This document shows positions 35 to 859 of a stretch of 959 bases of DNA, piece by piece; position 1 is the first letter of the stretch, and each line of letters begins with the position of its first letter. Where the stretch lies: the sequence record GS874857.1, one strand, 5' to 3'. The notes under the pieces are model-generated. The model was not told where the DNA came from and ran no database searches. It was given only the letters and a program-made list of their open reading frames with translations. The DNA is from a phage. The position numbers and the translations under genes were made by a program.

Positions 35-57
35 GGGAGACTTCGGTCTCCCTATTT
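35..57 (+). terminator. Stem-loop GGGAGAC-UUCG-GUCUCCC followed by UAUUU; putative intrinsic terminator of an upstream gene and/or stabilising 5' hairpin of the downstream mRNA
   Basis: Read directly: 35-41 gggagac and 46-52 gtctccc are perfect reverse complements (7-bp stem, 5 G:C pairs) closed by the tetraloop ttcg (42-45), giving the classic C(UUCG)G motif; followed by tattt (53-57). The U-tract is short and interrupted, so terminator efficiency is uncertain. It sits between a possible upstream stop (TAA 25-27) and the SD of the next gene. Confidence 0.45.
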
Positions 58-75: not shown

Positions 76-618
76 ATGAGTTTATATGATGACCTGATAT
101 CAAATATTGATTGGTTTAAACATAGCGGTCTTTCCCATGAAACTAATGCAGTTCTTTATAGAATTCGCCAAGACCTAGGTTATTCCAATGATTTCTTAAG
201 TCGAACAAGTAGCCATGGACACACTACCAAATTGCCCTTTATCTTCGCTTTAGCTGAAGACCTTTCTTTTGCAGAAGCTTTAGAAATTATTGACGTAAAT
301 CTGGGTATTCAACGAGTGGAATTCGCTGGATTATGCTATTCAGTATACGCTTTAAATGAACCAAGTGATTGTAAACAGCTTGTTGATGCTGACGATGATT
401 ACCATTTAGTATGCTATTTGATGTTAGAAAATGGTGACCACTTTGGTATGGTCGACCGCCGCCCGAGTTATTCGGATATTAAAAATTACGATAAAGATGA
501 GCTTATTATTTTGGCTAATGAGTATACATCAGAGATTCGAAAACAACAACGGAAGCTTAATCGTTTTATTGCTGAATGTCGCGAATACGCTAAAGAGGTT
601 CAAAATGGAACGGCCTAG
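76..618 (+). CDS. Hypothetical protein, 180 aa, acidic, predicted cytoplasmic (no signal peptide or TM segment); function unknown
   Basis: ATG at 76 preceded by a strong SD; 181 stop-free codons in AT-rich DNA, where stops are frequent in non-coding frames; stop TAG 616-618. By hand count about 30 Asp/Glu versus 18 Lys/Arg (net charge near -12), including an acidic patch DADDD (residues 104-108, nt 385-399) and a basic C-terminal tail (residues 155-173, nt 538-594, RKQQRKLNRFIAECREYAK). No Walker A, HEXXH, CxxC or other catalytic signature that I recognise. Confidence 0.8.
   Translation: MSLYDDLISNIDWFKHSGLSHETNAVLYRIRQDLGYSNDFLSRTSSHGHTTKLPFIFALAEDLSFAEALEIIDVNLGIQRVEFAGLCYSVYALNEPSDCKQLVDADDDYHLVCYLMLENGDHFGMVDRRPSYSDIKNYDKDELIILANEYTSEIRKQQRKLNRFIAECREYAKEVQNGTA
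592..598 (+). promoter_or_regulatory. Ribosome-binding site for CDS 605-859, embedded in the 3' end of the upstream CDS
   Basis: aaagagg at 592-598 (GAGG 595-598), 6 nt upstream of the ATG at 605; it lies within the last codons of gene 1, which is typical of translational coupling. Confidence 0.6.
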
Positions 619-859
619 TCTTTCATCACATGTTTATCAATTGGCTGAATATGATATTGCTATTTCCTTATTTATGGGAATTGTCACCGGTATGCTAGGA
701 GGTTTGGTTGGTCTGGTAATGACCACGGTTATGGCGGCAATCGAAGGAGTCACGCCTATTGAGATGGGTTTTTATATGATAATCGCTCCGGCTGTCGTGG
801 CTTATTTATCCCTGTTGTGTATGATATTTGCCATACAACGCTTTGATGCTCCATCGTAG
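605..859 (+). CDS. Small integral membrane protein, 84 aa, two predicted transmembrane helices with a glycine-zipper motif in helix 1; function unknown
   Basis: The ORF-track frame is open from 431, but the first ATG with an SD is at 605 (the M of FKMERPSL, residue 59 of the track ORF). Translation from 605: MERPSLSSHVYQLAEYDIAISLFMGIVTGMLGGLVGLVMTTVMAAIEGVTPIEMGFYMIIAPAVVAYLSLLCMIFAIQRFDAPS; stop TAG 857-859. Hydrophobic stretches at about residues 18-46 (nt 656-742) and 54-77 (nt 764-835) are separated by the short loop EGVTPIEM. G25xxxG29xxxG33 and G32xxxG36 lie at nt 677-712. Overlaps the stop of gene 1 by 14 nt (605-618). Confidence 0.7.
   Translation: MERPSLSSHVYQLAEYDIAISLFMGIVTGMLGGLVGLVMTTVMAAIEGVTPIEMGFYMIIAPAVVAYLSLLCMIFAIQRFDAPS

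Follow-up and report, generated by a model that had tools for sequence, protein, structure and literature searches.

The window analysed in this study is the whole 959-nucleotide stretch of phage DNA in record GS874857.1. Its best matches were phages IME08 and IME341, and it was matched by 85 phage records from T4-type coliphages of the genera Dhakavirus and Gaprivervirus. In IME08 and JS98, the window corresponds to a block of small genes of unknown function between e.6 and the lysozyme gene e. These genes all lie on the same strand, and the ORFs of the block overlap or abut. The last codons of e.6 were found at the 5' end of the window on the plus strand, with the stop codon at positions 25-27. 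Between this stop codon and the ribosome-binding site (RBS) of the following ORF lies a hairpin, GGGAGAC-UUCG-GUCUCCC (positions 35-52, plus strand), which carries a C(UUCG)G tetraloop. Hairpins with this tetraloop are a classic feature of intercistronic regions in T4. The 61-nt context of the hairpin folded with a z-score of just -1.5, an Rfam scan of the window, hairpin included, gave no match, and a repeat scan of the window found nothing. The following ORF (76-618, plus strand) encodes 180 aa, matches the PHROG profile phrog_8788 and sits where T4 has e.5. The protein ends in FIAECREY, a C-terminus similar to those of T4 e.5 and e.3. The ORF of main interest comes next, at 605-859 on the plus strand with its ATG at 605, and it translates to the 84-aa protein described in the first-pass annotation.

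The 3' end of the window was compared with Dhakavirus phage IME08. Positions 1-803 of the window aligned with 100% identity. From 804 to 959, the sole differences were 29 homopolymer runs, each one base shorter than in IME08, and the alignment contained no substitution or insertion in this region. From position 836 on, 28 of the 31 runs of at least two bases were shortened. The first deletion falls in the T run at 805-807 and shifts the frame after Y67, so that neither residues 68-84 (LSLLCMIFAIQRFDAPS), with R79 among them, nor the stop codon at 857-859 is real. The apparent 84-aa ORF therefore ends in a stretch, 806-859 (plus strand), that is frameshifted and non-biological. The window has lost both the C-terminal tail of this gene and the beginning of the 96-aa gene that follows, and both ORFs are intact in IME08 and JS98. 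A real variant was rejected as an explanation of the 3' differences, because the 29 deletions are all in homopolymers, occur within 155 bp with zero substitutions and destroy two conserved genes. The exact 84-aa product had no record in an exact-sequence look-up, which fits an artefact. Judging from the alignment, the tail at 804-959 reflects base calling that deteriorated towards the end of the read and not a natural allele. Every ORF call within the final ~155 bases of the window is thus invalid, including the 84-aa length, R79 and the second half of the second transmembrane (TM) helix.

The real product is 117 aa long in IME08 and JS98, and the 84-aa protein of the first-pass annotation does not exist as such. 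Each of the 85 related phage records encodes a full-length form of about 117 aa that covers 98-100% of the 117-aa query. The window retains the authentic 5' part of the gene, codons 1-67 (605-805, plus strand), which matches phrog_2330. Since M1 and P4 are invariant in the family, the ATG at 605 was taken as the start. A Shine-Dalgarno-like AAAGAGG lies 6 nt upstream of it (592-598, plus strand), inside the 3' end of the 180-aa ORF, and the two ORFs overlap by 14 nt; a junction of the same type is present in phage SP18. This arrangement suggests that translation of the gene may be coupled to that of the upstream 180-aa ORF. In JS98, the gene is annotated as a 117-aa protein (orf130). In GenBank, IME08 orf124 is given as 175 aa (L001 6431-6958), with an over-extended 5' end whose upstream ATG overlaps the 180-aa gene by 188 nt. 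The invariance of M1 and P4, together with the JS98 annotation, indicates that the true IME08 start is the ATG equivalent to window position 605, which gives 117 aa.

We then identified the family of this protein by profile matching. The IME08 117-aa protein matched phrog_2330 with E = 1.8e-45 over profile positions 1-122 of 122, and T4 e.3 (T4p126, NP_049739) matched the same profile over its full length with E = 2.9e-57. The 84-aa translation of the window covered profile positions 1-76 only (E = 6.3e-19), because its end is frameshifted. In BLASTP, the IME08 protein and T4 e.3 were colinear with ~20% identity (E = 2e-9), and both genes lie on the same strand in the e.8-e.6 ... e gene cluster. 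On these profile, alignment and positional grounds, the protein is the Dhakavirus orthologue of T4 e.3. The gene was already known, both as a GenBank hypothetical protein (IME08 orf124, JS98 orf130) and through the catalogued T4 e.3 family.

T4 e.3 is 120 aa long against 117 aa here. The two proteins share an M-x-K/R-P N-terminus, a TM1 with small residues at positions 25, 29, 32, 33 and 36, a short loop, a TM2, a K/R-rich tail ending in F-[IV]-x-[ED]-C-[KR] and a neighbourhood between e.6 and e. However, T4 e.3 has A25, A29 and S33 instead of Gly and so has no strict glycine zipper, it carries D40-C41 inside TM1, and its identity to the protein studied here is ~20%. T4 e.4 (T4p127; phrog_2604) also forms a two-TM hairpin with a basic C-terminal helix, which ends in FVKESRCKS. 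The similarity is colinear and weak (E = 0.005), and SP18 e.4 matched phrog_2330 with E = 0.0011. In contrast to the protein studied here, e.4 belongs to a separate PHROG, has a TM1 with no comparable Gly ladder and is absent from the phage genus of the window. From these matches, e.4 has the same layout and is a more remote paralogue.

Searches beyond this family gave little. No Pfam match was above the curated cut-off, and the sub-threshold matches Keratin_assoc, DUF7847 and TssN were rejected as hydrophobic-segment noise. PADLOC gave no defence-system match. A sequence-profile search of the PDB returned nothing better than CXCR4 TM segments at E > 0.2, and a PDB fold search returned no significant match. 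The best fold match was ExbB/TolQ (E = 0.7-1, TM-score ~0.3), which was rejected as generic helical-hairpin similarity; a 'MotA-ExbB domain' / 'VirB3' label on a neighbouring feature in one GenBank record probably has the same origin. In the BFVD fold search, matches were limited to uncharacterised phage proteins. When 1.84 billion cluster representatives were searched exhaustively with a profile, 9 clusters were recovered, with no annotation on any match and no cellular relatives identified among the 9, which indicates that the e.3 family is very narrow. All named relatives found in this analysis come from T4-like phages, and a full-text literature search for e.3 and e.4 found nothing on function.

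The protein has a basic N-tail, a TM1, a short acidic loop, a TM2 and a conserved K/R-rich C-terminal helix of ~45 aa. The first-pass annotation had described a two-helix protein, and this was borne out by hydropathy peaks at residues ~18-45 (TM1) and ~56-72 (TM2), with which AlphaFold2 agrees. TM1 comprises residues 18-47 (656-745, plus strand). The short acidic loop, residues 48-55 (746-769, plus strand), includes E53, contains no K or R and is probably periplasmic. The authentic first part of TM2, residues 56-67 (770-805, plus strand), contains the always-small A63 and A66. The AlphaFold2 model, a monomer built from a 25-sequence alignment, showed a helix at 18-47, a four-residue turn at 48-51 and a long helix at 52-116. 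Its mean pLDDT was 82.9; averaged over 10-residue blocks, the value was 81-89 over residues 11-40 and 73 over residues 41-50. For the divergent Bp7 allele, an independent model from BFVD superposed on it with a TM-score of 0.79. The C-terminal helix ends in the family motif F-[IV]-x-[ED]-C-[KR], as read from IME08, the tail being unreadable in the window.

The topology was examined by charge counts in 8 diverse family members. The N-tail carried 1-5 K/R residues and the true C-tail 8-16; the loop had 0-1 K/R and 1-4 acidic residues. By the positive-inside rule, this distribution supports an N-in/C-in hairpin. The same topology had been proposed earlier with R79 as part of its basis; that residue is a frameshift artefact, and the conclusion stands on the charge of the real tail. 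We also considered TM1 as a SAR-like releasable helix, as 13 of its 29 residues are G, A, S or T. This was rejected, since its Kyte-Doolittle values of 1.7-2.1 are high and no other support was found.

The glycine motif lies within TM1. Codons G25-G36 (GIVTGMLGGLVG) were found exactly at 677-712 on the plus strand, with the G25 codon at 677-679 and the G36 codon at 710-712, as first reported. Both patterns of the first-pass annotation, G25xxxG29xxxG33 and G32xxxG36, are present; the second had been spelled 'G32-LVG-G36', a slip for G32-GLV-G36. The motif is inside a hydrophobic helix, with 19-residue Kyte-Doolittle means of at least 1.6 (about 1.65-2.10) at centres 26-40, and it falls within the AlphaFold2 helix 18-47. 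The glycine zipper was reportedly defined by Kim et al. in 2005 as (G/A/S)xxxGxxxG or GxxxGxxx(G/S/T), and G25xxxG29xxxG33 fits this pattern inside a TM helix. In 200,000 shuffles of the TM1 composition (27 aa, 5 Gly), GxxxGxxxG occurred with P = 0.06 and at least three GxxxG pairs with P = 0.009. On a helical wheel, the five glycines fall inside a 100-degree arc (resultant 0.83, P = 0.01). By itself, the glycine motif is thus mildly unusual and modestly non-random, and conservation is the stronger argument. A GxxxG or small-xxx-small face is a generic device for the packing of TM helices.

Conservation was assessed in 57 family sequences, each of at least 110 aa. Position 36 was Gly in 57 of 57, and position 32 was Gly in 51 and Ala in 6. 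At position 33, there were 39 Ser, 16 Gly, one Val and one gap. Position 29 was Ala in 42, Gly in 8, Ser in 4, Thr in 2 and Cys in 1, and position 25 was Ala in 27, Gly in 17 and Ser in 13. Positions 63 and 66 of TM2 were A, S, G or T in all 57 sequences. The earlier proposal would lose its footing if the glycines were not conserved in homologues, and this was partly the case: the strict GxxxGxxxG is lost in most relatives (G29 in 8/57, Ser at position 33 in 39/57), being confined to a minority of Dhakavirus and Gaprivervirus sequences and replaced by AxxxAxxxS in the T4 clade, while the G32xxxG36 core is kept. The placement of small residues on one face of TM1, also part of that proposal, holds family-wide, with G/A/S at 25, A/G/S/T/C at 29, G/A at 32, S/G plus one V at 33 and an invariant G at 36. 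From the alignment, the conserved feature is a small-residue face with a plain GxxxG core, G32xxxG36. The face persists although the hairpin falls to ~20% identity with T4 and to 38% between two Dhakavirus alleles, which argues against chance and for close helix packing. Most other residues that are invariant in the family fall in the C-tail (N82, K87, Y96, N97, F111 and C115), and it is this cytoplasmic tail, not the membrane part, that is the most conserved region of the protein. Mutagenesis had been proposed at G29 and G33; G32 and G36 are the correct targets instead.

Expression and dispensability were considered from the gene context and from published screens. The e.3-like gene lies ~5.4 kb from gene e (L001 6605-6958 vs 12322-12819), with many CDS between them. 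The T4 late-promoter motif TATAAATA was absent within 2.7 kb upstream of the e.3-like gene; its sole occurrences in 13 kb were at a distance of 2.7 kb upstream of the e.3-like gene and immediately in front of gene e. In a scan for sigma-70-like promoters, the top matches (11/12 and 10/12) were directly upstream of e.6 and orf127, and the scan as such was not enriched over shuffles (16 found, 11.1 +/- 3.6 expected). These data weakly suggest that the gene may be expressed before the late genes, within an operon of accessory genes. T4 e.3 is non-essential, with transposon insertions tolerated at 37/37 sites, and gene e is essential in the same table (HIDEN-SEQ supplement). A published T4 screen table lists e.3 as 'conserved hypothetical, predicted membrane protein'. 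The CRISPRi-ART table gives e.3 as 'Not Fit', yet gives the essential gene e likewise, and it was given no weight.

The gene and its neighbours also vary between phages. Between IME08 and WG01, codons 6-85 form a hypervariable island (window ~620-860; L001 6620-6860 vs L005 1516-1755). In these codons, the two phages are 52% identical in DNA and 38% in amino acids, with 10% identity in the loop and no indels, whereas codons 86-117 are 93% identical in DNA and 88% in amino acids and the flanking DNA is 93-100% identical. Across the 85 phage records, identities were bimodal, with 60 at or above 80%, 25 below 60% and none between. The comparison points to a membrane hairpin that exists as two old allelic cassettes, one carried by IME08 and the other by WG01 and Bp7.

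The e.5-like, e.4 and e.3 proteins, one soluble and two membrane proteins, have in common a C-terminal motif of the type F-[IV]-x-[ED]-[CS]-[KR]. The tails of the consecutive genes are FIAECREY, FVKESRCKS, FIKECKS and FVIDCRK (window 556-618; T4 L003; L004 2155-2514). This shared tail may be an interaction motif or a trace of duplication. In T4 and Gaprivervirus SP18, e.4 precedes e.3; the gene (~350 bp in SP18) is missing from IME08, JS98 and WG01. Its boundaries lie exactly between two similar RBS and start-codon junctions (AAGGnGGTTCnnAATG; window 588-615, L004 2140-2160 and 2486-2512), which looks like the gain or loss of e.4 as a cassette by recombination at conserved gene boundaries. Further downstream, two genes of 96 and 93 aa (L001 6955-7245 and 7255-7536) are paralogues, and both of their C-termini end in WVSSS-x-x-C.

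The reading that we prefer, with a probability of roughly 55%, is that the glycine motif belongs to a packing face of TM1 in an N-in/C-in hairpin, which would pack against TM2 and perhaps in self-association, and which anchors the cytoplasmic tail of a dispensable accessory factor of the inner membrane. The glycines, chiefly G32xxxG36, would let TM1 pack very tightly on another helix. The simplest partner would be TM2, whose positions 63 and 66 lie at the membrane depth of G36 and G33; the G36/A63 and G33/A66 pairing is a depth-matching geometry (i + j = 99 around the turn 48-51) and not a measured contact. The face has five small residues, more than a two-helix hairpin strictly needs, which leaves room for an additional intermolecular interface, and the same face could also serve in self-association. 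The 117-aa inner-membrane hairpin would anchor the K/R-rich cytoplasmic C-terminal helix of ~45 residues, and this tail is probably the end through which the protein makes its interactions. Such a non-essential accessory factor, probably expressed before the late genes, would probably work at the inner membrane of the host, in competition between phage and host or between phages. In this reading, it is not the lysis holin.

The first-pass annotation had suggested homo-oligomerisation into a pore or a specific helix-helix interaction. In the pore model, the glycine zipper would assemble the protein into a homo-oligomeric pore or channel, and the protein would be a membrane permeabiliser of the pinholin, viroporin or toxin type. 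A known protein of similar architecture is the pinholin S21 68 of lambdoid phage 21, a class II holin in which a glycine zipper in TMD2 joins the interhelical interaction in pinhole formation (PMC9025707). Like the protein studied here, S21 68 is small and phage-encoded, with two TMDs, a cytoplasmic C-terminus that is positively charged and a glycine-zipper motif (PMC9025707), and an N-in/C-in topology, as judged from charge, is indicated here as well. The presence of GxxxGxxxG and GxxxG in the window, an Asp at position 40 inside TM1 of the T4 clade and a monomer model in which a long amphipathic helix protrudes from the hairpin, a shape common in oligomers, also speak for a pore. However, the motif is in TMD2 of S21 68 and in TMD1 here, no sequence or significant fold similarity between the two proteins was found, and no pore former was matched significantly in structure (best E = 0.7 in the PDB). 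The C-tail of the e.3-like protein is far longer (~45 aa) than that of S21 68 and is the most conserved region, and the strict zipper is not kept in relatives (G29 in 8/57, G33 in 16/57). The gene is also not beside an endolysin or SAR-endolysin gene, being ~5.4 kb from e, and the late-promoter motif is not nearby. A pinholin is needed for timed lysis and plaques, whereas T4 e.3, the orthologue of the protein studied here, tolerated insertions at all 37 sites in a screen in which gene e was essential. Lysis by T4-type phages relies on holin T together with a soluble lysozyme, which also counts against a pore. A pore or toxin role is poorly supported and seems unlikely to us.

An alternative that we consider possible, at well under even odds, is heterotypic docking. 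Here the TM1 face would bind a TM helix belonging either to an inner-membrane protein of the host or to a protein of a rival phage, and would modulate or block that protein, as a means of superinfection exclusion or counter-defence. Different or co-evolving partners would then account for the two alleles of the hairpin. The divergence of codons 6-85 between IME08 and WG01 (38% in amino acids, 52% in DNA) next to flanking DNA and tail at 93-100%, the bimodal identities across the 85 phages and the position of the lowest identity (10%) in the periplasmic loop are consistent with this, and dispensability in the laboratory is as expected for a conditional accessory gene. T4 Imm and other small early membrane proteins act in superinfection immunity, and Imm is a two-TM, inner-membrane, laboratory-dispensable protein. 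The comparison with Imm is an analogy by general resemblance, with no claim of homology, and to our knowledge Imm has no long conserved cytoplasmic tail. Against docking, we know of no partner, no defence or anti-defence family was matched in PADLOC or above the curated cut-off in Pfam, and the allelic pattern is explained equally well by neutral cassette exchange through recombination. The motif might, in contrast, have no specific role and result from a TM segment that is rich in Gly and Ala and under weak constraint, given that 6% of shuffles with five Gly in 27 residues contain GxxxGxxxG and that single glycines are freely swapped for A, S, C or T in relatives. This is very improbable, because positions 25, 29 and 32 are exclusively small, as is position 33 in 56/57, G36 is present in 57/57 and the face is kept in a hairpin only ~20% identical to that of T4; the one-face clustering (P = 0.01) and the three GxxxG pairs (P = 0.009) likewise stand against it.

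Compared with these alternatives, the packing face in a tail-anchoring hairpin remains the reading that we prefer. A more speculative extension, which we regard as rather improbable, is that the e.3 family is a polymorphic membrane module with a variable hairpin and a conserved tail. In it, the e.3, e.4 and e.5-like proteins might form, or dock onto, one membrane-associated complex through a shared tail motif, written here as F-[IV]-K-E-C-[KR]. The Gly face might oligomerise or capture a variable partner, and the complex might decide which superinfecting phages are excluded or which membrane-acting host defences are escaped. The hairpin is present as two deeply diverged cassettes in Dhakavirus genomes that are otherwise nearly identical.

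Taken as it stands, the glycine motif is real, correctly located and probably matters for helix packing, and it is an ordinary finding of little significance. The conserved cytoplasmic tail on a fast-evolving, two-allele hairpin is a pattern typical of conflict genes and a modest lead. This combination of hairpin and tail could help to assign a role within the T4 e.2-e.8 block of unknown genes.
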